Positions 3,337 to 55,973 of a stretch of 64,000 nucleotides of DNA are shown here, piece by piece (positions within the stretch are counted from its first letter, which is position 1; every line of letters starts with the position of its first letter). The stretch lies in assembly GCA_965199685.1 (NCBI GenBank), contig OZ241323.1, forward strand, positions 2,529,940 to 2,593,939. The letters run 5' to 3'. The stretch comes from an uncultured candidatus Porisulfidus sp. GTDB lineage: Bacteria > Pseudomonadota > Gammaproteobacteria > Poriferisulfidales > Oxydemutatoraceae. The position numbers were made by a program, and so were the translations under genes. Under the pieces are notes generated by a model that searched no databases, was not told the origin of the DNA, and saw nothing but the letters and a program-made list of their open reading frames with translations.

Positions 3337-3730
3337 GTATGGGGCGGTTGAAAAAGTACCGCTATTGTATAAACCCAACCGCTTGCGCCATTTGGTTTTG
3401 GTTTCCATAAACGAAATGAATGAATGGATTGTTTGTTCAAGAACAACGCGTTAGGGAGGGCATGTGGGACTGTTGAAAAATAGAACCGCCGTTTGTTGCA
3501 GTAGCACAAACGGCGTGACTTTGTGCAGAACCTTAACATAATTGCTAAGCACATGCATTGCAAAATGCATAGGCCTGCCACCCCTCCAAAGGAGGGGAAT
3601 ATACTAATGCAGGTACTTTTTCAACAGCCCTATGTTAGCCCTCCCCTACAGGTGGTTATCGTTAATTTAGTGGTGCGTGGCGGTTACGTTTGTGCAGTGG
3701 GGCGGTACTTTTTCAACAGCCTCACATTCA
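3337..3730. repeat. Repeat-module mosaic, locus R2 (includes ctgttgaaaaagtac-type MITE ends)
   Basis: It contains gggcggttgaaaaagtaccgc, the module aaccgccgtttgttgcagtagcacaaacggcgtgactttgtgcagaacc, the module catgcattgcaaaatgcataggcctgccacccctccaaaggaggggaat, and two gtactttttcaacag ends. Confidence 0.7.
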
Positions 3731-3735
3731 GTCGT

Positions 3736-5833: not shown

Positions 5834-8563
5834 TCACGATTGGGGATCTGGTCTTTCTGTCGTTGTAGGTAGCTCTTTTAAGATAGAAAGGTCATAGGTT
5901 GTATTGAGATGATAAATCATCGGTCCTTTATATGGCGGTAAAATCTTAACTGTGGCATACTTCATGATGTTGTCTTCAACCAAATAAAGCATTGCATTAT
6001 CTATTTTTTTTCCGCCTTTACCCGAAACAAGTTTTCTTAAATTAGGAAAGTTATAGTAGCGGTATACTTTATAGTCGGATTTTAGAAAATCAAAAAAGTC
6101 GCGCTGATGTATATCGGACATAACATAAAGCCGAGAGCCTTTACTAATTGAATGTTCCAACACTGATTTAATTTGCTCCTTTGATACCGCAAACGGAAAT
6201 ATGCGTCGCTTGTTATCTCTACCTTCAGTCAATGCGGGCAAATGCATACACGCATAATAAACTTTATTTAGAGGAATGCTGTCATGTTGCTGATCCCATC
6301 CACTGCTGTTTACCCTATCTAAAAAATAACGTTGTGCCGTCATTGCATCCTCACGAGATATGCCTAAGGCATTCAGCATCTCATCAACTATTCTAATTAC
6401 TTTCTCCGAGTCCTGTTTTTCTCTCGTTGAAGGTGGCTCCTTAAAGAGCGAAAGGTCATAGACTGTATTGAGATGGTAACTCATCGGTCCCTTATGTGGC
6501 GGTAAAATCTTCACCGTAGCATACTTCATGATGTTTTTTTCAACTAAATAAAGCATCACATTATCTATTTGGCTGCCGTCCTCACCCGAAACAAGTTTTC
6601 TTAAATTAGGAAAGTCATAATAGCGATATACCTGATAATCTGATCTTAGAAAATCAGAAAACTCAGTCCTATGTATATCGGACATGATATAGAGCCGAGA
6701 ACCTTTGCTAATTGAATGTTTCAGCACTGATTGAATTTGCTTTTTTGATGCCGAAAACGGAAATATGGGTTGCCCGTAATCTCTATCTCTGATCGATGCA
6801 CGCACATGCATACACGCATAATAAACCTTATCCAAAGAAATGTCTTCGTGTTGCAAACCACTTATCTCGTGGTTTGTTCTATTTAGAAAATAATGTTGCG
6901 ATGCCATTGCAACTTTACGAGACACGCCTAAGACATTCAGTGTCTCGTCAACTGTTCTATTTACTTTCTCCGAATACGGAAAGTCTATATAGTAGTCATG
7001 TTGATACTTTTCGCAAGTGCTAACATAATCAAATGCCGGGTCTCTGCGAACCAACACATCATAGCGTTGATTCAGCTCCTCGCTGACGATTTCATCTGCA
7101 GCAAGGCTATATACTTTGTCGGGCGCATAACTAGCCAAATCGAATTCTTCCTCTTTAATCCAACCTTGATTGAGTGTACTAGATTTATGGCCTCCTTGTT
7201 CAAACTGAACAAGGATACTGTTTGATAAATCAAGGTAATCCTCAAAACGCAAGTTGATTCTACTATCACCCAAATTATGCGTTGAACTAATAGTAAATGT
7301 TCCGATGACAGGAATTCTATTTAGGTATTGAGCTTCCCTAAAGATAAGGTTCAACATTCCAAACACGTTATCAACACCGGTTTTACGCCCAGACATGGAA
7401 AATAAGAGATATTTGTTCGGCAGTAAATTTTTATTCAATGAAGATATTACTATCAACTTAGGATTTAATTTTTTCCGTTTAGTAACCCAAAATTTTTTAA
7501 TTTGCCTCCAAAACAGTCTCGTGGGTAACCGTTTTTTCACTGGTTTTTTATAGATTGATCTCGTGGATGGTGGTTTCTTTAAAAAAGTTAGATCGTAAAG
7601 CGTATTAAGGTTATAAATCATTGGGGCTTTGTGGGGTGCTAAAATCTTAACCGTGGCATACTTCATAATGTTTTTTTCAACCAGGTAAAGCATCACATTG
7701 TCTATTTTTTTACCGCCCTCACCCGAAACAAGTCCTCTTAATTTGGGAAAGTCATAATAGCGATATACCCGATAGTCTGATTTTAGAAAATCAAAAAAGT
7801 CAGGCTGATGTATATCGGACATGATATAGAGCCTTGACCTTTTTCTAATGGCGTGTTTAACTACCGACTCTATTTGCTCCTTAGCTGCCACAAATGGGAA
7901 TATGGGTTGCTCGTAATCTCTATCTTCAAAAGCTGCACGCACATGCAGACACGCATAATAAACTTTACGCAGAGGAATACTGTCATATTGCTGATCCCAC
8001 CCGCTACTGTTTACCCTATTTAGAAAATAATGTTGTGCCGCCATCGCATCATGGCGAGATATACCAAAAGCATCTAATACCTTGTCGGTAAGACTGTTTA
8101 CTTTCTCTGAATACAGAAAGTCTATCAAGTATCTATCGTATTTATATTTTTTACAAGCGATAGCATACTTAAATGTCGGGTCTCTACGGATCAACACATC
8201 GTAGTGTTGATTCATTTCTTCGGTGACGATCTCATCGGCGGCAAGGTTATATACTTTGTCGGGTGCATAACTAGCTAAATCCAGTTCTTGTTCTTTCATC
8301 CAATCTAGATGAGACGCAGTGGGTTTATGACATCCTTGATCAAGTTGAACAGTGACGCTGTCTGACAAATCAAGGTAATCTTCAAAGCGCAAATCGGTTC
8401 TGTTATCACCCATGTTATGCGTTTGGCTAATATTAAATTCTCCGATAACAGGAATTCTATTTAGATGTTGAGCCTCCTTGAAAATACGGTTCAACATACC
8501 AAACACATTATCAACACCTGTCTTACGCCTAGTCATCGAAAACAAAAGATATTTTTTTGTCAT
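5834..8563 (-). CDS. Fusion of 2.5 tandem fucosyltransferase-superfamily-like GT modules (module D1 aa 1-333, basic linker, D2 aa 384-715, D3 C-terminal half aa 716-909)
   Basis: Each module carries: KYLLFSMxRxxTGVDNxFGMLNRIFxEAQxLNRIPVIG (compare POFUT1 GYLLY...RFGNQ...LAFAKLLNRTLAVP); FEDYLDL; HVRASIxDRD (the H-[LV]-R Arg motif of GT23/GT65 enzymes); and LYIMSDIH (the hhhh[ST]D motif). D3 lacks the N-terminal ~150 aa, and its HVR motif is degenerate (HLPALT). Confidence 0.45.
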   Translation of the reverse strand: MTKKYLLFSMTRRKTGVDNVFGMLNRIFKEAQHLNRIPVIGEFNISQTHNMGDNRTDLRFEDYLDLSDSVTVQLDQGCHKPTASHLDWMKEQELDLASYAPDKVYNLAADEIVTEEMNQHYDVLIRRDPTFKYAIACKKYKYDRYLIDFLYSEKVNSLTDKVLDAFGISRHDAMAAQHYFLNRVNSSGWDQQYDSIPLRKVYYACLHVRAAFEDRDYEQPIFPFVAAKEQIESVVKHAIRKRSRLYIMSDIHQPDFFDFLKSDYRVYRYYDFPKLRGLVSGEGGKKIDNVMLYLVEKNIMKYATVKILAPHKAPMIYNLNTLYDLTFLKKPPSTRSIYKKPVKKRLPTRLFWRQIKKFWVTKRKKLNPKLIVISSLNKNLLPNKYLLFSMSGRKTGVDNVFGMLNLIFREAQYLNRIPVIGTFTISSTHNLGDSRINLRFEDYLDLSNSILVQFEQGGHKSSTLNQGWIKEEEFDLASYAPDKVYSLAADEIVSEELNQRYDVLVRRDPAFDYVSTCEKYQHDYYIDFPYSEKVNRTVDETLNVLGVSRKVAMASQHYFLNRTNHEISGLQHEDISLDKVYYACMHVRASIRDRDYGQPIFPFSASKKQIQSVLKHSISKGSRLYIMSDIHRTEFSDFLRSDYQVYRYYDFPNLRKLVSGEDGSQIDNVMLYLVEKNIMKYATVKILPPHKGPMSYHLNTVYDLSLFKEPPSTREKQDSEKVIRIVDEMLNALGISREDAMTAQRYFLDRVNSSGWDQQHDSIPLNKVYYACMHLPALTEGRDNKRRIFPFAVSKEQIKSVLEHSISKGSRLYVMSDIHQRDFFDFLKSDYKVYRYYNFPNLRKLVSGKGGKKIDNAMLYLVEDNIMKYATVKILPPYKGPMIYHLNTTYDLSILKELPTTTERPDPQS

Positions 8564-8579
8564 ATTCTTAAGTATACTT

Positions 8580-17834: not shown

Positions 17835-18818
17835 CTAGATTACTCGCCTAAGAATTCGATCAACCATTTTTGTACAATCTCGATGCGTAGAATGCACCAA
17901 AAACTGATACGCAGCTCTAACACAGCAAGGAGAGACCATATATAGGTTTAGATCATTTTTTTTGTATAGTTCAAAAGGTACGCGGTCTATCGGGATATAT
18001 CGACCAGTTTCTCTAGCCAAGAGAATAGTTGCCTGCTTCCACTTATGTGCCGCCGAAGGGGTAAGCATATATGCCATGCCCGAAGTCAAGTAAAAATGGT
18101 GTTCCGATGTTTTCTTATACGGTGGAACAATATAATGCTTGCGAGTGACTTTATGCCACGAGCACTTATCTTGATCAGGTAATCCCCCTATTTCGCACGC
18201 TAGGTTCACTATTTGTAACCATAACTCTATTATATGTGCTGATTGTTCAGATGTTTCACTATTTGTTTTGCGCAATCTCTTAAAAAAAAGTTTCATGAAT
18301 TTTATGATTATCAAACGAACAATAAATGGATTTAATAGAGGGTAATATTTTTTATAGCGTATCAGCTTATATAAACCAAAAAATGTAGAGTCATAGAGTT
18401 CCCACATTATTTGGCGAATATACAGTGTAAGGCTAGAGAGCATCAAAACATCCCAGGGCACTTCCTCGGCAACTTTTAATATACTAGGAAATGTAGACAA
18501 TATTTGGACATCATCTTCCAATATACAAGCATGCCGAACATTATGTTTTATAAGTAAATTCTGGGCTTTAATATGGCTTAACAAACAGCCCAACTTTCCG
18601 TCATTGGAGTTTTTTTTGTATAAAAACTCCATATCAGTTTTATCAATATCTAACCACCTAGCAATTTTTGTACGATATGCCTTAGAATTTAGGTTGTGCT
18701 TGTCAATGGCTTCTACAAACCGATATTTAAGATTCAAAGCATCAAGCTGCCTTCGCATATATAATTTTCTTTCCGGGGTACGTTTTAGGTTGATGATGTA
18801 AATAGGAGGATAAGGCAT
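17835..18818 (-). CDS. Glycosyltransferase family 25 (LPS/LOS beta-1,4-galactosyltransferase-like, Lic2B/LgtB family)
   Basis: GT25 motifs are present: IYIINLKRTPERK, KLGCLLSHIKA and ACILEDDVQI. Confidence 0.65.
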   Translation of the reverse strand: MPYPPIYIINLKRTPERKLYMRRQLDALNLKYRFVEAIDKHNLNSKAYRTKIARWLDIDKTDMEFLYKKNSNDGKLGCLLSHIKAQNLLIKHNVRHACILEDDVQILSTFPSILKVAEEVPWDVLMLSSLTLYIRQIMWELYDSTFFGLYKLIRYKKYYPLLNPFIVRLIIIKFMKLFFKRLRKTNSETSEQSAHIIELWLQIVNLACEIGGLPDQDKCSWHKVTRKHYIVPPYKKTSEHHFYLTSGMAYMLTPSAAHKWKQATILLARETGRYIPIDRVPFELYKKNDLNLYMVSPCCVRAAYQFLVHSTHRDCTKMVDRILRRVI

Positions 18819-21689: not shown

Positions 21690-22202
21690 ATGAACATATT
21701 CCTAATCGGGCCGATGGCGGCGGGCAAAAGCCATATTGCCAAGACTTTGGCAAAATGTATGAAAAGTCGTTTTTACGATACCGACGAGTTGATTTGTCGA
21801 TACGCCGGTATGGATATTCCGACAATATTCAAAAACGAAGGTGAGGCAGGCTTCAGAAAGCGCGAAGCCGAAGTGATACAAAAGCTCATAGGCAATCGCG
21901 ATATAATCGTGGCAACCGGCGGCGGTGTGGTTCTAGATCAACAAAATTGCAAGAACATGAAAGATAATGGTACAGTAATTTATTTAAGCACATCTTTGGA
22001 TACCCGTTATGAAAGAATACAAAATCCAACCGGACGCCCTTTGCTGATGGGGGGAGACATCTATGAAACGATGCAAAATTTGGATCGTGTTCGCATCCCT
22101 ATATACGAAGCACTTGCCGATTTTATCGTTGATAACAACGGCATCACCGAATCGACAGTGAAAAAAATCTTTGCATATATCCACAACACAAAACAGATAT
22201 GA
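21690..22202 (+). CDS. aroK: Shikimate kinase
   Basis: It has a Walker A motif (NIFLIGPMAAGKSHIAK), is 170 aa long and is translationally coupled to aroB (4-nt overlap). Confidence 0.85.
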   Translation: MNIFLIGPMAAGKSHIAKTLAKCMKSRFYDTDELICRYAGMDIPTIFKNEGEAGFRKREAEVIQKLIGNRDIIVATGGGVVLDQQNCKNMKDNGTVIYLSTSLDTRYERIQNPTGRPLLMGGDIYETMQNLDRVRIPIYEALADFIVDNNGITESTVKKIFAYIHNTKQI

Positions 22203-23272
22203 CGACTTTAACGGTAGAACTTGGCCGGCGTAGTTACCCCATCCGTATAGGACGAGGTTTACTGGCGCAAGTCGGTGAATTATTGACGCAAAACTGGCAA
22301 GGGTCTCATCTGGTGATACTTTCAGACGAAGATGTCGCACCGCTTTATATGCAAACGGTATGCGATGCAATCGGCACAGAATTGAAAATAGATCAAATCG
22401 TGATACCGGCTGGTGAATCGTATAAAACATTGCAGACTTTTGAGCAGATCTGTACCAAACTACTACAGTACCGAGTCGAGCGAGATGCGCTACTCGTTGC
22501 ACTCGGCGGCGGCGTGGTCGGAGATATTGCCGGTTTCGTTGCCGCAAGTTATCTACGTGGTATTGCTTTTGCACAGGTTCCTACGACTCTACTTGCTCAG
22601 GTAGATTCTTCGGTAGGTGGCAAAACTGCGGTCAACCATGCCTTAGGCAAAAACATGATTGGGGCTTTTTATCAACCTTGTTGTGTTATCACTGACTTGA
22701 ATACGCTTGACACGCTACCACCTAGACACTATGTTGCAGGACTTGCTGAGGTTGTTAAATACGGCTTGATTGCAGATGCTGATTTTTTCACTTGGTTAGA
22801 GGATCATGTAGAAGCACTACTTGCGCACGATGACGAGGCTTTGTGTTATGCGATAGAACGCTCGTGTGCTATCAAAGCGGAAATCGTCGCTGTTGATGAA
22901 TTAGAGCAGGCCGGCAAGCGCGCCTTGCTTAATCTAGGGCATACCTTTGGGCATGCTATAGAAGCGACCTTGGGCTACGGGTTTTGGCTACACGGTGAAG
23001 CTGTGGGGTGCGGTCTTGCGCTTGCTGCACAATTGTCTCTGAACTTGGGTTACCTATCTAAAGAAAGCCTTGACCGCATTGTCTCATTACTCAATCGTTT
23101 TGGGCTAGCAACATCCAAACCGACCACTTTAGATACACAAGCATTGTTAGATGCAATGACATTGGATAAAAAGAACAAAGGCGGACAGCAGCACTATATT
23201 TTATTGCACACAATAGGAGACGCTTTTGAGACCAATCAAGTGAAAATACAAGCGGTAAAGGATGTTTTATAA
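22199..23272 (+). CDS. aroB: 3-dehydroquinate synthase
   Basis: DHQS motifs are present: GGGVVGDIAGFVAASYLRGIAFAQVPTTLLAQVDSSVGGKTAVN and HTFGHAIE. Confidence 0.9.
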   Translation: MTTLTVELGRRSYPIRIGRGLLAQVGELLTQNWQGSHLVILSDEDVAPLYMQTVCDAIGTELKIDQIVIPAGESYKTLQTFEQICTKLLQYRVERDALLVALGGGVVGDIAGFVAASYLRGIAFAQVPTTLLAQVDSSVGGKTAVNHALGKNMIGAFYQPCCVITDLNTLDTLPPRHYVAGLAEVVKYGLIADADFFTWLEDHVEALLAHDDEALCYAIERSCAIKAEIVAVDELEQAGKRALLNLGHTFGHAIEATLGYGFWLHGEAVGCGLALAAQLSLNLGYLSKESLDRIVSLLNRFGLATSKPTTLDTQALLDAMTLDKKNKGGQQHYILLHTIGDAFETNQVKIQAVKDVL

Positions 23273-23299: not shown

Positions 23300-23524
23300 A
23301 TGCAACCGGTATACCAAGGAGATGCGATGTTATCAATCAGCGATATATTAATAGGTAATAACGAGATGGACAGCTTTGAAGAACTTATTGCCTATGTGAA
23401 ATCGCAAGCCCGTCAAGGTGAAATGTTTATACAAATGGACGTACGCCCACCATTTTCCGATACACCGGAGGATTGGGAGCAACAAGTGGAAGCTGCGTTT
23501 ACTTCTGCCAGCAATGTGGAATAG
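23300..23524 (+). CDS. Hypothetical small acidic protein
   Basis: The ORF ends 4 nt before the Cas6-like ORF starts. I recognise no motif in it. Confidence 0.25.
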   Translation: MQPVYQGDAMLSISDILIGNNEMDSFEELIAYVKSQARQGEMFIQMDVRPPFSDTPEDWEQQVEAAFTSASNVE

Positions 23525-23528
23525 ATTT

Positions 23529-24230
23529 ATGGAGAACTACTGGCAAGATTCGGAAGAAAAACAGTTGCGAGTGCCCGAAGATGTTGCAGATCTGGGCTTT
23601 AGAATTGAATGTCGCGGCGGCTTGACGGTGGATCATGCGTATGCTTTGTATGAAGCGATTAGACAAGTATTGCCATGGTTTGAGACAGATCCTGATGTTG
23701 CCCTACATACACTGCACGGAGCCGAATCCGGCAACGGATGGTTAAGACCCTATAAAGAAAACCAATTGCTGTATTTATCCAAGCGAACGAGATTACGGTT
23801 GCGCTTAGCCAACCATCGCTTTGAAGATGCGATGGTTTTAGAAGGACAAACAATTGATGTCGGCAGCTGTTCAATAAAAATAAATAAGCCCACTCTGCGC
23901 ACGCTCAGTACACAAACGACTTTGTTCACTAGATCTTTAGCATCGAGAAATACACAAAACGAGCATGAATTTCTGCACGAAGCAACCAGAATGCTCAACG
24001 CGAAGGGCATACATCCGCAGCGTATGATGGGAGGGCGACAGCACGCGATTAAAACCCCCGATAAAACTCTATACGCTAGAAGCCTTATGATAGTGGACCT
24101 TGCTTTTGACGAAAGCATTGAATTGCAACGCACTGGCTTAGGCACTGAACAGAAGCTCGGCTGTGGTATTTTCCTACCTCACAAAAGTATTGATGCGGTT
24201 CACCAACCCCGAACCGTAGGAGCAGACTAG
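23529..24230 (+). CDS. Orphan Cas6-like RAMP-superfamily protein (glycine-rich loop), function unknown
   Basis: The C-terminal GLGTEQKLGCGIFLP fits the RAMP/Cas6 G-rich loop G-h-G-x5-G-h-G and resembles the CasE tail GIGPAKSMGCGLLSL. The N-terminal DHAYALYEAIRQVLPWF resembles the CasE helix around its catalytic His (DLYQLHQGLWHLFP). No cas genes or CRISPR array are nearby. Confidence 0.3.
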   Translation: MENYWQDSEEKQLRVPEDVADLGFRIECRGGLTVDHAYALYEAIRQVLPWFETDPDVALHTLHGAESGNGWLRPYKENQLLYLSKRTRLRLRLANHRFEDAMVLEGQTIDVGSCSIKINKPTLRTLSTQTTLFTRSLASRNTQNEHEFLHEATRMLNAKGIHPQRMMGGRQHAIKTPDKTLYARSLMIVDLAFDESIELQRTGLGTEQKLGCGIFLPHKSIDAVHQPRTVGAD

Positions 24231-24235
24231 AACCG

Positions 24236-24400
24236 CCGGTTGACCTTGATATATAGGGCTGTTGAAAAAGTACTGTCATCGCGCAAATGTAACCGCTTGC
24301 GCCATTGAATTTATGAAAATGGTAGGGGCGGATTTGCATATCCGCCCGTCAATCGGCGTGACATTGCTTGTTCCACTGAGTCAAGCGATGGGGTTTTGAT
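24236..24400. repeat. Repeat modules, locus R4
   Basis: gggctgttgaaaaagtactgtc...aaccgcttgcgccattgaatttatgaaaa...ggggcggatttgcatatccgcccgtcaatcggcgtgacattgc. Confidence 0.6.
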
Positions 24401-25065
24401 TAGGGTATGCTACGTTGACTACCTAACCACCGCAACAAAGGCACCCAATCGTCGCGCTCGTGCATAGTTGCATAGCGGGACATATCAAATAACCCAAGCC
24501 CCTTTTCCGCAGCACGCACATAATTCATACTGTCCCTCAAATGGGTTGGGAAAGAGAAACGCAACTTGAGTAGAAACTCGTCAAGCTGCCAGGCTATTTT
24601 GGTTTGCATACGAACCCGATTACCAATTACCGCAACTTTAGCACGCCTCCCAGAAATCGCCGGGGCCGCGTTTATTTCTTTCGCAAACTCAGACACCGCT
24701 CGCATATCCAAAGCCGAAGGAACAACTGGGATAATAATTGTCTCGGCGCGTCGGATCATGCTGTTCAGTTCTTTCCCGTGCAAGGCTGCCGGTGTGTCCA
24801 TGATATAAATGTCTGCCATTCTCTGAGTAGCACCGCGCTGTCTAATGCCATCGTATGCCAAAATGGGTGGCTTGCCGGGAGAGCGTGCCGCTAACCACCC
24901 CAAGCTACCTTGCTGGGGATCATAATCGGCTAAAACAACTGATAGACCTCTATTGGCGTAATAGCTTGCTAAATTAGTTGCAACCGTAGTTTTACCGGAA
25001 CCTCCTTTAGCATTAAGTACCATAATTTTTCTCATAACATTCTCCTCGTCAGTTACTGATTTCAC
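24400..25065 (-). CDS. ParA/MinD-family P-loop ATPase (orphan ParA)
   Basis: It carries the deviant Walker A motif KIMVLNAKGGSGKTTVATNLA and is 221 aa long. No parB lies adjacent. Confidence 0.7.
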   Translation of the reverse strand: MKSVTDEENVMRKIMVLNAKGGSGKTTVATNLASYYANRGLSVVLADYDPQQGSLGWLAARSPGKPPILAYDGIRQRGATQRMADIYIMDTPAALHGKELNSMIRRAETIIIPVVPSALDMRAVSEFAKEINAAPAISGRRAKVAVIGNRVRMQTKIAWQLDEFLLKLRFSFPTHLRDSMNYVRAAEKGLGLFDMSRYATMHERDDWVPLLRWLGSQRSIP

Positions 25066-25164
25066 GTATCTACTAATAAAATAGTTTATAAATAATTGAC
25101 ATTATAATCAATTTCTATACTATACAAAACTTACGCAAGGCTTCTAGATGAACAAGGTGGTACT

Positions 25165-25743
25165 ATGCAAGAAAATTTGAGTCAACAAATCCTAAGAGTT
25201 GATGTCGCCGGTATGCCCCTCGACTGGATAAATTATCAAGATGCGGTAAGGCTTTATCACGCAGATATCGTGGCTTACGAGGCAGGAACTGCGCTATTCA
25301 TAATTCGCGGCGGTATTAACGCCGTGACCGGAAAACGTAGTGTTATCAATGTCAATTCAGTGATCGCAACATATGGGAAAAATCCACATCTAGACCTTAA
25401 TTACATACCACCTTTGAACAACGACGCACTATTCAAACGAGACGGTTCATTGTGTCTCTATTGCGGAGGGTCTTTTAATCGTCGTCATCTATCTCGTGAT
25501 CATGTCATCCCTTTTAAGCAAGGCGGCAAAGATACTTGGAATAATGTTGTTGCCGCTTGCAGACATTGTAATAATCAAAAAGCGGATCGCACACCGGAAC
25601 AAGCCGGCATGAAACTATTGGCGATTCCCTTTGTCCCGACACATGCCGAGTATATTTATTTGAGAGCACGCACCATATTGGCAGACCAAATGGAATTCCT
25701 AAAAGCACACTTTCCTAGAAAGAGTCGCTTGAGAGATTCTTAA
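25165..25743 (+). CDS. HNH endonuclease
   Basis: The HNH motif is CLYCGG...RDHVIPFKQGGKDTWNNVVAACRHCNNQK. Confidence 0.65.
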   Translation: MQENLSQQILRVDVAGMPLDWINYQDAVRLYHADIVAYEAGTALFIIRGGINAVTGKRSVINVNSVIATYGKNPHLDLNYIPPLNNDALFKRDGSLCLYCGGSFNRRHLSRDHVIPFKQGGKDTWNNVVAACRHCNNQKADRTPEQAGMKLLAIPFVPTHAEYIYLRARTILADQMEFLKAHFPRKSRLRDS

Positions 25744-25756
25744 TTATCAAGACGCG

Positions 25757-26848
25757 TTGAGCTATCTAGGAAACAAAGATTACCGGCACGGCACTGTTGC
25801 ATCTACTGGTATCCTACTCGTCAACCTCGGCACTCCACAAGCCCCTACTACAGCAGCGGTGCGTCGTTATCTTGGTGAGTTTTTATCGGATCCGCGCGTT
25901 GTAGAAATTCCTCGTCCGCTGTGGTGGCTGATTTTGCATCTTTTAGTACTTCCTTTGCGCCCACGCAAAAGTGCTGCGGCTTATGCAAAAGTATGGCTGC
26001 CGGAAGGGTCACCGTTATTTGTTCATTCCAATCGCCTAAGTTTGGATGTAGGGAAAAAGCTACAAGACGAACACCAGAACTTAGTTGTAAAACTTGCCAT
26101 GCGCTACGGAAAACCAGCCATCAAAGAGGTGCTGGATGAAATGAGAGAAAAATCAATGCAACGGTTATTGATTTTGCCGTTGTTCCCACAATATTCAGCT
26201 ACCACCACGGCATCAGTTTTTGACGAGGTGGCACGGATACTGCGCACTTGGCGTTGGCAACCTGAATTACGCTATATCAGCCATTATCATAAACAGCCTC
26301 TTTATATCTCCGCCTGTGCCGAACAGATACACTCGTTTCGCAACCAACACGGTTGCGGAGATCTGTTGTTATTTTCATTTCATGGATTGCCTAAACGTAA
26401 TTTGCTTGAGGGCGACCCCTATCACTGTCAATGTCATGCCACAGCACGACTAATTGCCCAGGCACTATCCATAAACGAACAAGAATACAAGCTTTGCTTT
26501 CAATCACAATTCGGGCGCGCAGAATGGTTACAACCTTACACCGAACAAACCTTGAGTGAGCTTGCAAAGCAAGGTGTAAAAACCATAGATGTCTTTTGTC
26601 CGGGGTTTTCGGCAGATTGTCTAGAAACCTTAGAGGAGATTGCCATTCGCGGACGAGAAGTCTTTGTGGAATGGGGTGGTTCAGAGCTGCGCTATATTCC
26701 AGCACTCAACAACAGCAAATTACACATAGAAAGCATCAAAAACCTTATTTTAAGAAATATAGAAAATTGGGGTATAGAGGATATTGAAGACGAACAAATC
26801 CGCCAACAAGCCGCCGAAAAAGCGTTGGCTATGGGAGCTCGGCAATGA
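25757..26848 (+). CDS. hemH: Ferrochelatase
   Basis: N-terminus GILLVNLGTPQAPTTAAVRRYLGEFLSDPRVVEIPRPLWW is the ferrochelatase signature, and the His-containing HGLP motif is present. Confidence 0.85.
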   Translation: MSYLGNKDYRHGTVASTGILLVNLGTPQAPTTAAVRRYLGEFLSDPRVVEIPRPLWWLILHLLVLPLRPRKSAAAYAKVWLPEGSPLFVHSNRLSLDVGKKLQDEHQNLVVKLAMRYGKPAIKEVLDEMREKSMQRLLILPLFPQYSATTTASVFDEVARILRTWRWQPELRYISHYHKQPLYISACAEQIHSFRNQHGCGDLLLFSFHGLPKRNLLEGDPYHCQCHATARLIAQALSINEQEYKLCFQSQFGRAEWLQPYTEQTLSELAKQGVKTIDVFCPGFSADCLETLEEIAIRGREVFVEWGGSELRYIPALNNSKLHIESIKNLILRNIENWGIEDIEDEQIRQQAAEKALAMGARQ

Positions 26849-33780: not shown

Positions 33781-33794
33781 ACACCTTCACTGTT

Positions 33795-34062
33795 CAAATA
33801 TGATATTCCCCTCCTTTGGAGGGGTGGCAGGCCTATGCATTCTGTAATGCATGCGTTTAGCAATTATGTTGAGGTTCTGCACGGTGTCACGCCGATTGAC
33901 CTACTGGTTCAATCGGCGGTTCTATCTGACGAGGTGGTGTTTTGTGTACCCGCCATTTAGGACAAGCCTTAGCTTGTCCGACCTACATACCCATGTTAAA
34001 AGGCTCTGCTCTGACGTTACGCCGTTTGTGCCATTGCAACAAACGGCGGTTCTATTTTTGCA
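33795..34062. repeat. Repeat-module mosaic, locus R5
   Basis: It has the same P1-P4 modules as R1 and R3. Confidence 0.7.
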
Positions 34063-34070
34063 ACAGCCCC

Positions 34071-34385
34071 TTAGATACCGTTTTGCAATACGACGTACTT
34101 TCTCTTAATGTTTTCCTTAAAACTATCAGAAATACTCTCCCAGTCCATGATATCTACCGAAACCAAAACATCGCTCTCTAGAAAAGTTTCCTTTAAGTCA
34201 TAAACCTCGTCTGAGTTACAGTCAAAAACCACCAAGTCCAAATCGGATGTCTCCTGAGCCTCTTGCGTGACGCGAGACCCGTAGACCCAAACTTTTTTAT
34301 CCGGGATATACCGATTGATGATTTCCTTAACCATCCGGAGCTGATCTGCATCTAAATCTATAAGGCGTTCATCCACCATTTTCAT
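34071..34385 (-). CDS. Nucleotidyltransferase (MNT) domain protein, antitoxin-like
   Basis: The minimal NTase motif is VWVYGSRVTQEAQETSDLDLVVFD (GS...D.D). Confidence 0.65.
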   Translation of the reverse strand: MKMVDERLIDLDADQLRMVKEIINRYIPDKKVWVYGSRVTQEAQETSDLDLVVFDCNSDEVYDLKETFLESDVLVSVDIMDWESISDSFKENIKRKYVVLQNGI

Positions 34386-34833
34386 TTGTCATTTTTTTGT
34401 AGATTGTCGTGCAGTCCTCAATGAAGCCCCCTATTTTATCGAGTGCTTGCATTGCTTTCTCTATGCTGTAGTCATGTGCAGCATTCCCTCTAATTTTGTT
34501 ATATTCAACGAGCCGCCGATGTATTTCTTTGTTTATCAGAAGATCTTCGTGAGCGCGGCGGAAAATAGGAATCGGTGAGTTTTCTAACTCAACCAAACCG
34601 TTTTCTTTTAAGTATTTCTTTATATGCTTCCATAAGGTGTCATAACAAATCTCAAAACATTTAATAACCGAGTTCTTAACCGCTCGTTGGTTGACCGCAG
34701 ATAAGTTTTGCTCGTCCAGAGTCAAAAAACTTCCGTATTGTGCTTTCAATTCGCCAAGCGATCTATCTAATTTCTCATAGTCGGTTTTGTTCATTTGGTC
34801 TCTCCTTGCTTTAGCTTTTCCAATATGAAACAA
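34369..34833 (-). CDS. HEPN / nucleotidyltransferase substrate-binding (HI0074-family) protein, toxin-like
   Basis: The family signature KCFEICYDTLWK...RGNAAHDY (R-x4-HxY-like) is present. It overlaps its MNT partner by 17 nt. Confidence 0.6.
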   Translation of the reverse strand: MFHIGKAKARRDQMNKTDYEKLDRSLGELKAQYGSFLTLDEQNLSAVNQRAVKNSVIKCFEICYDTLWKHIKKYLKENGLVELENSPIPIFRRAHEDLLINKEIHRRLVEYNKIRGNAAHDYSIEKAMQALDKIGGFIEDCTTIYKKMTNENGG

Positions 34834-34929: not shown

Positions 34930-35019
34930 GGAGAGGTACCGAAGCGGTCATAACGGCGCTGACTCGAAATCAGATGGTCGACATAAGTCGGCACGTGGGT
35001 TCGAATCCCACCCTCTCCG
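34930..35019 (+). tRNA. tRNA-Ser (anticodon CGA)
   Basis: The cloverleaf was hand-folded. The acceptor stem is GGAGAGG/CCTCTCC with discriminator G. The D-arm is CCG-AAGCGGTCATAA-CGG. The anticodon stem CTGA/TCAG encloses the loop CTCGAAA, giving anticodon CGA. The variable arm is long (GGTCGACATAAGTCGGC). The T-arm is GTGGG-TTCGAAT-CCCAC. No CCA is encoded. Confidence 0.8.
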
Positions 35020-43282: not shown

Positions 43283-44699
43283 TGGCAAAAGGAAACTCAA
43301 AAAAGCCCAACGATTAGCACCAAAATGCGTCGGATGGTCTGGGCATCACGAAAGATAACTTAACTTCTCGCGGGGGCTTGTTGCTAGCCCTCAAAGTGGT
43401 CAAATCACTACGACTTAAGAAACTTGCTGATATTTTATTTAGGCGACCGGGTAGCAATCGTGGCTACCTCAATGGCGACATTCTAACGACACTGGTGGCG
43501 ATGCAAACCGACGGTGCGACCAGTTTGAGCGGTGTATTGCGTTTGCGCACGGAGAGCGCATTGCTCAAGCTGGTCGGTATTCGCAAGATACAAGTGTCAA
43601 TACCTTATCGCGGTGGTTGCATGGTCAGGGTCAAGCCGGTGTGCGTTTAATTAACAAGATCAATCAGAGGGTGATTACTGCCACCTTGGCGTGCCGGCAA
43701 GTCACAGAGGTGACGTTGGATATTGATGCGACAGTGATAGAGACTGAGAAATCCAGTGCTACACGCACCTATCAGAACCACCGAGGTTTCACGATGATGG
43801 TCGGCACGCTAGTTGAGGTCGGTCAAGTGATTGCCGCCCAGTTGCGCCACGGCTATGTGTCGCCGAACTTTGACAATATTGGTTTCATCAAGACGTGTCG
43901 AAAGCTGTTGCCGAAAGGTATCCGGCTCAAGTGCGTGCGCAGTGATGCAGCCGGCTATCAACACAAAGTGATTGACTATCTCATCCGCCATCACATTGAG
44001 TTTGTTATTCGTGCGGCAATGAACCCGGCGATTAGTCGCGCCATTGCGGCACTATCGGGGGCGGATTGGCAACGATTGCGATATAAAGACGGCAGTTTAT
44101 CGCAACATGAGTGGGTGGCGCGTTGCACACATGTCATGTATCGTAGCGACAAAGTCATTGACCTCGTCATCCAACGCAACCTCAGGCCACTGCCATTCCA
44201 GAAAAAACAGGCTGCCAAGTTGCTGGGTCGGCAACGGATATTGGATATATTTGTTAATGACACTGTTCAGTACGGCTATCGTGTCATTGCCACCAATATC
44301 AAAGCACTAGACAACTCAGAGATTGTCCACTTCTATAATCAACGCGGCGAGCATTCCGAGAACCATATTAAAGAGTTGAAATCGGACTTTGCCGCCGGTC
44401 GTCCACCATGTAGTGAGTTTGATGCCAATGCGCTGCATGTTGCGGTGTGTGCGTTAGCTTTCAATGTCTTCGCACTGATGCGCCACGGTTTACCCGTCGG
44501 GATGCGCCGTGCCAGGGCATTGACACTGCGAGTGGATTTGTTTGCTTTGGCCGGGAAGATTGTTTACCATGGTCGGCAATGCCACCTCAAACTACCCGAC
44601 GGCTATCTGAGCTTGTTGAGCCGCGCCTTGGCAACCATGCGCTATCATTTGGGTGGGGTGTTGCCGAATCTGCACTCGCCACTGATACAGCCAGACTAG
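43283..44699 (+). mobile_element. IS4/IS1380-like insertion-sequence remnant; transposase broken into at least 3 frames (pseudogene)
   Basis: 43283..43318 encodes MAKGNSKKPND*. After a frame change the IS1380-type N-terminus LTSRGGLLLALKVVKSL appears (ORF 43378..43650). ORF 43617..44699 then carries DDE_Tnp_1 motifs LDIDATVIET, VRSDAAGY and YNQRGEHSENHIKELK. The segment is visibly GC-richer than its flanks. Confidence 0.6.
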
Positions 44700-44934: not shown

Positions 44935-45185
44935 TAGCCTTCCCCTACGGTGCATGAAATACCTTTCCAACAGCTCCACATGAGGCTGTTGAAAAAGTGT
45001 CTGCATTGGTACATTCCCCTCCTCTGGAGGGGTGGCAGGCGAAGCCTGACGGGGTGGTTGCAAAGGTTCTGCACAAAGTCACGCCGTTTGTGCTACTGCA
45101 ACAAACGACGGTTCTATTTTCCAACAGCTCCACATGCCCTCCCTAACGCGTTGCGTCTGCAAAAACAATCCATTCATCCATTTTA
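44935..45185. repeat. Repeat-module mosaic, locus R7 (upstream of gyrB)
   Basis: It contains ggctgttgaaaaagtg, cccctcctctggagggg, ggttctgcacaaagtcacgccgtttgtgctactgcaacaaacgacgg and ccctaacgcgttgcgtctgcaaaaacaatccattcatcca. Confidence 0.65.
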
Positions 45186-47780: not shown

Positions 47781-48172
47781 CACCCTGTCCTTACATGTCC
47801 AACCGCCACGCGCCACCAAATCATGCAAACCACCCCTAATGCGTTGTCCTTGCATGTCCAACCGCCACGCGCCACCCAACTTATGGCAACCACCCGTAGG
47901 GGAGGGTACTGCATTTTGCGATGAATACGCTGCCCAACATTCTAGAGTTCTGCACAATGTCACGCCGATTGATTTTGATATATGTGATGTTTTTAACGAA
48001 CACAGCATTTAGATTTTGCACAAAGTTACGCCACTTGACCTACTGGCTCAAGTGGCGGGTTCACTCGGCGATAATCGGCGGTTCTACTTGTGCAGACGTA
48101 ACGCGTTTCGGGAGGGCATGTTAGCCCTCCCCTACGGCTCAAGGATACTTTTGCAACAACCCTCAAAATATA
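47781..48172. repeat. Repeat-module mosaic, locus R8, including a ~52-bp tandem duplication (47786..47895)
   Basis: tgtccttacatgtccaaccgccacgcgccaccaaatcatgcaaaccaccc and ttgtccttgcatgtccaaccgccacgcgccacccaacttatggcaaccaccc, followed by the ttctgcaca box modules. Confidence 0.6.
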
Positions 48173-53396: not shown

Positions 53397-53560
53397 CTGG
53401 TAAGGGCGGACAATTTGAAATGCTGATTGACCTACCGGTTCAATCGGCGGCTTTATTCTGCCCAAACGCGTTGCGTCTGCCCAAACAATCCATTTGGGGC
53501 TGTTGAAAAAGTACCGCTATTGCATAAACTCAACCGCTTGCGTTATTGAATTTATGAAAA
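53397..53560. repeat. Repeat modules, locus R9
   Basis: tgattgacctaccggttcaatcggcgg, aacgcgttgcgtctgcccaaacaatccatt and ggggctgttgaaaaagtaccgctattgcataaactcaaccgcttgcg. Confidence 0.6.
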
Positions 53561-55778: not shown

Positions 55779-55876
55779 GGACTGTTGAAAAAGTATTTTC
55801 TGCCCCTACCATTTTCTTAAATTTAGTGGCGCAAGCGGTTACGTTTGAGCGATGGTGGTACTTTTTCAACAGTCTG
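55779..55876. repeat. Complete ~98-bp MITE-like element with ~15-bp terminal inverted repeats, locus R10
   Basis: ggactgttgaaaaagta...ttaaatttagtggcgcaagcggttacgtttgagcg...ggtactttttcaacagtctgac. The internal sequence matches 3665..3700 (ttaatttagtggtgcgtggcggttacgtttgtgcag). Confidence 0.7.
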
Positions 55877-55973
55877 ACATTACTACTTTGCGCTTACACG
55901 CAGTGCGTTGTGGCGGCCGCTGAGTGTTGATATGTGTTATGCTACACATATACCAAAGCAGGAGTAAATGGAG

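Follow-up and report, generated by a model that had tools for sequence, protein, structure and literature searches.

A Cas6-family protein encoded between aroB and hemH

Cas6L is a 233-residue protein encoded between the housekeeping genes aroB and hemH in a 64-kb stretch of DNA (contig OZ241323.1, positions 2,529,940 to 2,593,939) from an uncultured Candidatus Porisulfidus species; the whole stretch is referred to here as the window. The gene for a small acidic protein is located directly upstream, and the two form a vertically inherited module which is characteristic of Gammaproteobacteria that oxidize sulfur by the reverse dissimilatory sulfite reductase (Dsr) pathway. An original prediction, made from the letters of the DNA, had taken the region for a mini-island, possibly one left by a CRISPR-Cas system (CRISPR, short palindromic repeats that are clustered and regularly interspaced) or by a plasmid. 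The region holds the following genes and features:

21690..23272 (aroB 22199-23272), plus strand: aroK-aroB, the upstream housekeeping flank (TIGR01357 aroB, 383 bits)
23327..23524, plus strand: gene for the small acidic protein, 65 amino acids (aa), isoelectric point (pI) 4.05, directly upstream of Cas6L
23529..24230, plus strand: Cas6L, 233 aa, assigned by PF09559, TIGR02807 and fold
24221..24400, strandless: insertion of ~180 bp resembling a miniature inverted-repeat transposable element (MITE) or a repetitive extragenic palindromic (REP) sequence, between the convergent Cas6L and parA genes; absent in the related locus L001
24400..25035 (longest open reading frame, ORF, to 25065), minus strand: ParA/MinD-type ATPase, 211 aa, Pfam AAA_31 and CbiA, with the deviant Walker A motif KGGSGKT
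25165..25743, plus strand: HNH endonuclease-domain protein, 192 aa, PF14279 HNH_5 (5e-16), divergent from parA
25757..26848, plus strand: hemH (ferrochelatase), the downstream housekeeping flank (TIGR00109, 307 bits)

The acidic ORF of 65-74 residues that had been predicted 4 nt upstream of the Cas6-like gene is indeed present. Its longest form runs from 23300, and the start is placed at ATG 23327, with AGGAG before it, because the homologs begin with MLxLSE, which gives 65 residues; its stop at 23524 lies 4 nt ahead of the Cas6L ATG. Since the gap between aroB and the small gene is 54 nt, and no promoter-like site is predicted on the plus strand between 23000 and 23330, the small gene and Cas6L are probably co-transcribed with aroB. 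Downstream, a spacer of 169 nt separates Cas6L from parA. The ParA and HNH genes are found as a divergent pair between aroB and hemH, where they had been predicted.

Sequence and fold both make Cas6L a genuine member of the Cas6/Cmx6 family. It matches Pfam PF09559 'Cas6' from end to end (E=1.6e-55, 188.5 bits against a cutoff of 26.7) and exceeds the cutoff of the NCBIfam equivalog TIGR02807 cas6_cmx6 ('type I-MYXAN Cas6/Cmx6'; 122.4 bits, cutoff 98.85), and PADLOC Cas6 models likewise match it. The ORF had been read as a Cas6-like repeat-associated mysterious protein (RAMP), and these matches are far beyond chance. An AlphaFold (AF2) model built from 86 homologs (predicted local distance difference test, pLDDT, 91.6; predicted template modelling score, pTM, 0.86) shows two RNA recognition motif (RRM)/ferredoxin-like domains, with beta-alpha-beta elements in each half. 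The best Foldseek matches are the Cas6 chains 8fcu_B and 8fcj_B from the Cascade of a type I-B CRISPR-associated transposon (CAST), with E=3e-16 and template modelling (TM) scores of 0.75-0.82, so that the RAMP or ferredoxin-like fold on which the original prediction had made its reading depend was found. Pyrococcus Cas6 and Cse3/CasE rank next, and the top 42 fold matches in the Protein Data Bank (PDB; E<=1e-3) are all Cas6 or Cas6e (Cse3, CasE) chains, or Cascades that contain them.

The sequence GLGTEQKLGCGIFLPHK at residues 203-219 contains the glycine-rich loop (G203-L-G-x5-G-C-G213, then LPHK); the loop had been described as the end of the ORF, and it is located close to the C-terminus, with the ORF continuing beyond it. 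The supposed echo of the CasE tail in this loop is also recovered, as the family profile, which retrieves 8fcj_B by sequence with E=2.5e-24, retrieves CasE through ~20 residues of the loop alone (E=0.87). H36, G203, G205, G211, C212, G213 and K219 are invariant in the 86 Cas6L sequences, and Y38 is nearly so. According to the alignment and the model, H36 and Y38 are found at the start of helix alpha-1, in the N-terminal part where a likeness to the CasE catalytic-His helix had been noticed earlier. In addition, Arg/Lys makes up at least 80% of 11 alignment columns, among them R165 and R184 of the beta-hairpin.

The public annotation of Cas6L is 'type I-MYXAN CRISPR-associated protein Cas6/Cmx6'. 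By its context, Cas6L is not a CRISPR-associated protein. No CRISPR array was detected in the window by TRF or by a k-mer scan, and the window proteins that were scanned, a set smaller than the full list of ORFs, include no further cas gene; these scans agree with the earlier statement that the window holds neither a cas operon nor an array. For the relatives, one genome per species was scanned with two peptide motifs specific to the clade, which gave 599 matching stretches, of which at least 486, each from a different species, were confirmed as Cas6L-clade members. All neighbourhood counts given below refer to the best 80 of these confirmed loci, taken with 10-kb flanks, and their denominators vary with the feature. 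A CRISPR system of the Cas6 type is absent from all 80 loci. Cyanobacterial members of this Pfam family, taken as a positive control, are encoded in operons of the form tniQ <- cas6-devT(cas8)-cas7-cas5. A joint alignment and a neighbour-joining tree split the sulfur-oxidizer clade cleanly from the CRISPR-linked Cmx6 proteins, with 20-30% identity between the clades and medians of 42-44% inside each.

Several marks set the sulfur-oxidizer clade apart. The inserted loop HGAESGNGWLRP (Cas6L residues 63-74) is specific to the clade and corresponds to a nearly invariant HGAESGNGWxRP; the N-terminus carries M-x-Y-W, of which YW is conserved, and the glycine-rich loop ends in GCGIFLPHK. At the start of helix alpha-1 this clade has an invariant D-H-x-Y motif, which is also present in part of the CRISPR clade, while the structurally closest protein, the CAST Cas6 8fcj_B, has Asn at the position of H36.

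Cas6L could still mature CRISPR RNA (crRNA) in trans, for an array or a cas operon located outside the window; the score above the Cmx6 equivalog cutoff points in this direction, and the search of this genome for arrays and cas genes covers the 64 kb of the window. This explanation is highly improbable in view of the absence of Cas6-type systems within 10 kb of any of the 80 loci, the separation of the Cas6L clade from the CRISPR-linked members, and the fixed place of the module at dsr, not at cas. The one CRISPR locus nearby, L022, is of type II. Its array, the sole real one among the 80 loci, is part of a Cas9-Cas1-Cas2 locus, and was rejected as a link to Cas6L. Type II CRISPR-Cas systems do not use Cas6.

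In L022, a single MAG (metagenome-assembled genome), a TnpB/IS605-like ORF of 421 aa and the type II CRISPR-Cas locus are inserted 3-10 kb from Cas6L (L022:12843-20626), to which both are unrelated. The CRISPR-Cas locus comprises a 36-nt repeat that occurs 22 times at 16672-18096, cas2, cas1 and the 3' part of cas9.

Distribution and neighbourhood of the gene pair

The hosts of the Cas6L clade are nearly all sulfur-oxidizing Gammaproteobacteria, among them Sulfuricaulis, Acidiferrobacterales, Thiotrichales/Beggiatoaceae, Chromatiales, Candidatus Muproteobacteria and many sponge-associated metagenome-assembled genomes (MAGs). An exhaustive profile search retrieved 308 clusters (50% identity) at E<=1e-30, and 1,627 at E<=1e-3. 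Among the matches listed, the closest relatives are L001, from Candidatus Porisulfidus (92% identity), and L002, from an Oxydemutatoraceae MAG (86%).

The usual operon is dsrQ(TauD-like)-small-[~236 aa]-Cas6L-DsrC/TusE-like (no Cys), divergent from dsrABEFHCMK. The conserved partner of Cas6L is the 65-aa acidic protein, whose gene directly precedes that of Cas6L on the same strand in 74/79 loci. In most genomes it is accompanied by DsrQ, a TauD-family dioxygenase that heads the operon upstream (61 of 68 loci), by a protein of ~236 aa, lacking known domains, that is encoded between the small protein and Cas6L (26 of 78), and by a DsrC/TusE-family protein devoid of Cys downstream of Cas6L (63 of 75), all of them beside dsrAB; the dsrAB(EFHCMK...) genes diverge from the Cas6L unit in 49/58 loci. 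Two cultured organisms, Sedimenticola thiotaurini (complete genome, CP011412.1) and Halochromatium glycolicum, show the arrangement dsrLKMCHFEBA <-> small - ~235 aa - Cas6L - DsrC-like, without dsrQ.

Further conserved genes with no assigned function are found near dsr and Cas6L (e.g., L011:11251-15362), encoding proteins of 67 aa and 107 aa, a PKHD/YbiX-type Fe(II) dioxygenase, a second 2-oxoglutarate (2OG)-Fe(II) oxygenase, a DUF6866 protein (~350 aa) and a protein of ~203 aa. It is striking that this neighbourhood encodes three different 2OG/Fe(II) oxygenases.

The window itself contains no dsr, dsrQ or DsrC-like genes, and L001 and L002 likewise lack them at the Cas6L locus. More distant relatives of the same family-level group (L015, L035 and L073) carry the pair beside dsr, and because of this we infer that the pair was relocated away from dsr in the sponge-associated Candidatus Porisulfidus/Oxydemutatoraceae lineage, where it is found between aroB and parA. 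Other full-length loci without dsr come mostly from Thiotrichales/Beggiatoaceae MAGs (L047, L052, L063 and L065), besides L075, which is labelled as Pseudomonadota only.

The small acidic protein has 68 homolog clusters, in which the motif F..D..PPF.DTP..E..F is invariant. Its AF2 model has a pLDDT of 85, and it gave no Pfam, NCBIfam or PDB sequence match and no fold match at E<=1e-3; likewise, no recognisable DNA-binding domain was found by Pfam, PDB sequence and fold searches. NCBI and UniRef label the partner of 58-64 aa in Sedimenticola and Halochromatium as 'sulfur relay protein DsrC' (P0295, P0296, P0301, P0312, P0315, P0324). Neither the 65-aa protein of the window nor the 66-aa homolog of L011 matches the DsrC models PF04358 and TIGR03342, and this name is probably a mis-annotation carried over from the genomic context.

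The immediate surroundings of the pair in the window had suggested that the whole region might be a decayed CRISPR-Cas system or plasmid remnant, perhaps one in which Cas6 and ParA cooperate, given the company of the orphan Cas6, which is found next to an orphan ParA, a nuclease of the HNH type and a repeat element. This is now barely credible. The GC content of the region is 0.42-0.50, like that of the flanks, and the comparison of the aroB-hemH junction among relatives, which had been proposed as a check, shows that the order mrcA-aroK-aroB-small-Cas6L-parA-HNH-hemH-GT2 is kept in L001 and L002. The small, Cas6L, ParA and HNH genes have the same synonymous divergence (dS) from L001 and L002 as aroB and hemH, and they are under purifying selection: the ratio of nonsynonymous to synonymous divergence (dN/dS) against these two loci is 0.04-0.05 for small, 0.10-0.14 for Cas6L, 0.03-0.04 for ParA and 0.04-0.06 for HNH, with 0.06-0.10 for the flanking aroB and hemH. 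No integrase, tRNA or direct-repeat boundary was found at the junctions; the annotated ORFs from aroB to hemH include no integrase, and the tRNA is ~9 kb away. Moreover, the small and Cas6L pair is conserved in several hundred species, which also speaks against a remnant. The original prediction would have yielded to conserved core neighbours with assigned non-Cas functions; the conservation was found, and no non-Cas function is assigned to these genes.

ParA and HNH adjoin Cas6L in 2/80 loci, L001 and L002, both of the window's own lineage, and neither is beside Cas6L in the other 78; therefore, they are neighbours and not partners. The proposal of a repurposed Cas6 working with a positioning ATPase is consequently retained in its first half, a repurposed Cas6 being the best reading, and loses its ParA partner. 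A ParABS partition system was also considered for parA and rejected, as the protein scores 120 bits against NF041546, under the cutoff of 180, and no ParB-like or adaptor gene is found beside parA, which has just the convergent Cas6L downstream. The HNH protein gave weak generic HNH-domain matches alone in PADLOC.

The repeat element predicted after Cas6L is confirmed as MITE/REP-like. The stretch 24221-24400, the sole strain-specific piece (~180 bp), is missing at the same junction in L001, and the copy is a recent insertion. It contains two hairpins (24278-24305 and 24326-24347) and copies of dispersed repeats that also occur at 3337-3405, 53492-53560 and 55799-55872, and it was rejected as a CRISPR repeat; that it is a genome-wide MITE-like element further disfavours the remnant explanation. 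The module does not include ParA, HNH or the repeat element, which are neighbours unrelated to it.

MITE/REP-like hairpin repeat families (e.g., GCCGATTGACCTACTGGTTCAATCGGCG) are found at nine or more sites of the window, many of them intergenic: 2213-2465, 3337-3735, 16554-16812, 24251-24347, 33790-34059, 44978-45183, 47938-48064, 53422-53560 and 55799-55893.

Possible functions of Cas6L, and other features of the window

The best reading of these data, to which we give roughly even chances, is that Cas6L has been exapted from a Cas6 to act independently of CRISPR, by binding or cleaving a cellular RNA which is linked to sulfur oxidation through Dsr. A retained RNA-binding role is favoured because the parts with which Cas6 enzymes engage RNA have stayed invariant or nearly so in the 86 sequences. 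Cas6L would be a structure- or sequence-specific RNA-binding protein, as other Cas6 proteins are, and probably a metal-independent endoribonuclease acting through His36/Tyr38 and the glycine-rich loop; its substrate would be a cellular transcript and not a CRISPR repeat, and the outcome would be a post-transcriptional control connected with Dsr-dependent sulfur oxidation. Translational coupling across the 4-nt gap would provide the small acidic protein in a fixed ratio to Cas6L, and this protein may be its stoichiometric partner, either as an adaptor or as a regulator/inhibitor. A more specific version, in which Cas6L is an active hairpin-specific endoribonuclease that is regulated or targeted by the 65-aa protein and processes or stabilises reverse-Dsr transcripts, is offered as a tentative prediction.

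An acidic small protein (pI 4.05) encoded 4 nt upstream of a putative RNase is also the typical layout of toxin-antitoxin systems, in which Cas6L would be the RNase toxin and the small protein the antitoxin. This is very unlikely, because the pair has a fixed place beside dsr in most loci and its divergence tracks that of core genes, the ~236-aa gene separates the two members in a third of the loci (26/78), neither a DNA-binding domain nor a known fold can be recognised in the small protein, and the PADLOC matches are limited to Cas6 models.

Several results weigh against an action of Cas6L on cellular RNA. No RNA target was found in the intergenic regions, by Rfam or in the palindromes upstream of dsrA. 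The regions between Cas6L and the DsrC-like gene of 45 loci share no common hairpin, and contain unrelated terminators and MITEs; Rfam detects a single tRNA in the window (34930-35019) and nothing in seven related loci; and RNAalifold yielded 0 compensatory pairs in the conserved blocks between dsrA and dsrQ that are described below. With a median pI of 6.4, the family is close to neutral, as against 9.2 for the CAST Cas6, and its beta-hairpin is 9-13 residues shorter than in the CRISPR-linked relatives. In other Cas6 proteins, this beta-hairpin region enters the groove of the RNA. HGAESGNGWxRP, which is the best conserved of the clade-specific elements, lacks a counterpart among known Cas6 proteins and could bind protein, and the partners come all from the sulfur-relay neighbourhood, which is also compatible with a protein-binding role. 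Finally, the search for dsr genes and CRISPR arrays in this genome covered the 64-kb window.

Many of these points would suit a protein which has kept the Cas6 fold and lost the RNA function, serving as a scaffold or chaperone that holds the small protein, DsrQ or the Cys-less DsrC-like protein. The near-neutral pI, the short beta-hairpin together with the new invariant AESGNGWxRP that is absent in the CRISPR-linked members, the tight gene coupling with protein partners, and the failure to find an RNA target in the regions searched are all in its favour. It is a serious rival, although we regard it as less likely than a role on RNA: more than 80 diverged sequences have kept, with little or no change, the very elements by which Cas6 proteins handle RNA, namely the glycine-rich loop, His/Tyr at helix alpha-1 and the 11 basic columns.

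The search for an RNA target that an exapted Cas6 might recognise covered two further places, both in the dsr neighbourhood. Between the genes of the dsr operon, dsrC is followed by terminator-like hairpins, and downstream of such a hairpin, before dsrM, an imperfect palindrome CATGTTT-N5-AAACATG is present in several low-GC loci (L005, L009, L011, L012, L017, L018, L023 and L024; e.g., L005:4489-4507 and L009:4459-4477). This palindrome may serve as an operator or form a hairpin in RNA, and it was rejected as a general target of Cas6L since it is confined to one clade. The second place is the divergent region between dsrA and dsrQ, where 17 loci of one clade (L008-L043) share the conserved blocks TATCTCTATnGGGATAA, CCCCATGGAGGGGATTTTG(C/T)C and CTTCTAGACT, ~170 nt upstream of dsrA, with two small palindromes (e.g., L011:8643-8774, minus strand). 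These blocks were rejected as an RNA target and are read as promoter DNA, as they show no covariation and their spacing fits -35/-10 boxes and operators; this suggests a promoter (-35 TTGCC, -10 TAGACT) with operators for a dsr regulator. The motif is absent from the window.

Some other features of the window lie apart from the Cas6L locus. On the minus strand, 5834-11964 is a tandem array of 4-5 paralogous ORFs of ~364 aa, in units of ~1.1 kb with 70-85% DNA identity, in which a 909-aa ORF covers ~2.5 units and the N-termini are conserved as 'KKYLLFSM..R..G.D.VF.MLNRIFKEA.HLNRIP.IG.F'; these ORFs gave no Pfam or PADLOC match. The array adjoins the gene for a 950-aa protein (12131-14983, plus strand) with an IpgD/SopB-type phosphoinositide phosphatase domain (PF05925, E=8e-60), which looks like an effector directed at eukaryotes, fitting a sponge-associated symbiont. 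On the minus strand at 34071-34833, beside the only tRNA of the window (34930-35019), a nucleotidyltransferase (PF18765/PF01909) and a nucleotidyltransferase-substrate-binding protein (PF08780) form a pair that, judged by its two domains, resembles MNT/HEPN-type toxin-antitoxin systems. A DDE transposase is encoded at 43617-44699.

Comparison with known systems and significance

The known proteins closest to Cas6L are the Cas6/Cmx6 of type I-B or 'I-MYXAN' CRISPR-Cas systems and of the I-B CAST (8FCJ/8FCU, chain B), which are of the same family and share its fold (TM 0.75-0.82). Both have a glycine-rich loop of the form G(L/I)G..(R/K)..GCG(I/V)F and a D-(H/N)-x-Y motif at helix alpha-1. Unlike them, Cas6L belongs to a separate clade with 20-30% identity, has no adjacent cas8/cas7/cas5, tniQ or array, and shows features of its own in the AESGNGWxRP loop, the shorter beta-hairpin, the N-terminal YW and the near-neutral pI. 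In the case of Cas6e (CasE/Cse3) of type I-E systems, the double-RRM fold is still detectable (Foldseek E from 1e-6 to 1e-4) and the glycine-rich loops are similar (GIGPAKSMGCGLL in Cas6L against GLGTEQKLGCGIF in Cas6e). A His at the start of helix alpha-1, a catalytic residue in CasE/Cse3, is likewise found in Cas6L (H36). However, the sequence match is confined to the ~20 residues of the loop (E=0.87), and Cas6L lacks a Cascade context.

The identity and the context of Cas6L are solid, and surprising for both fields concerned, whereas the mechanism is what we infer from them. Reverse-Dsr ranks among the major routes by which sulfur is oxidized in oceans, sediments and symbioses, and its regulation is poorly understood. 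If the proposed role is true, Cas6L would be a natural example of a Cas6 acting on cellular RNA and the first case in which a Cas6 has taken up a housekeeping role in core metabolism; dsr would gain from it a post-transcriptional layer of control in most sulfur oxidizers of the Gammaproteobacteria. To our knowledge, the known exaptations of Cas proteins are mostly related to defence or to transposons. The small protein, the ~236-aa protein, Cas6L and the Cys-less DsrC-like protein are conserved yet unstudied neighbours of dsrAB and dsrQ, and the names given by automated pipelines, 'type I-MYXAN CRISPR-associated protein Cas6/Cmx6' for Cas6L and 'sulfur relay protein DsrC' for its small partner, are both misleading; surveys that count matches to single cas genes could overcount CRISPR-Cas systems in sulfur oxidizers.

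One member of this neighbourhood is already known from the literature. In sulfur oxidizers that are aerobic chemotrophs, the gene dsrQ (tauD-like) has been reported to lie upstream of dsrA (Lenk et al. 2012, as cited in PMC7596348), and the TauD-family gene that precedes small and Cas6L in 61/68 loci diverges from dsrA in exactly the same way. The passage in PMC7596348 that describes it names dsrQ alone, and no small protein, ~236-aa protein, Cas6L or DsrC-like protein appears in it; the lineage of the window differs from that arrangement in having no dsrQ at its Cas6L locus. No description of a dsr-linked Cas6-like gene or of its small partner was found in searches of the open-access literature.

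The nearest parallels in kind are the CRISPR derivatives without arrays that have been regarded as exaptations, such as the Streptomyces cas5-8 and STAND module and the haloarchaeal HRAMP (Koonin & Makarova 2022, PMC8730458). The four mentions of Cas6 in that review include none of a dsr-linked Cas6. As in Cas6L, these are Cas-family proteins conserved outside adaptive immunity. In contrast, the systems described there are multi-Cas, effector-like assemblies with a predicted role in defence, while Cas6L is one Cas6 alone, whose partners are non-Cas proteins and whose gene neighbourhood is metabolic. The Cas6L clade, vertically inherited across several hundred species with no link to arrays and fixed by an energy-metabolism operon, would represent a different kind of Cas recruitment.

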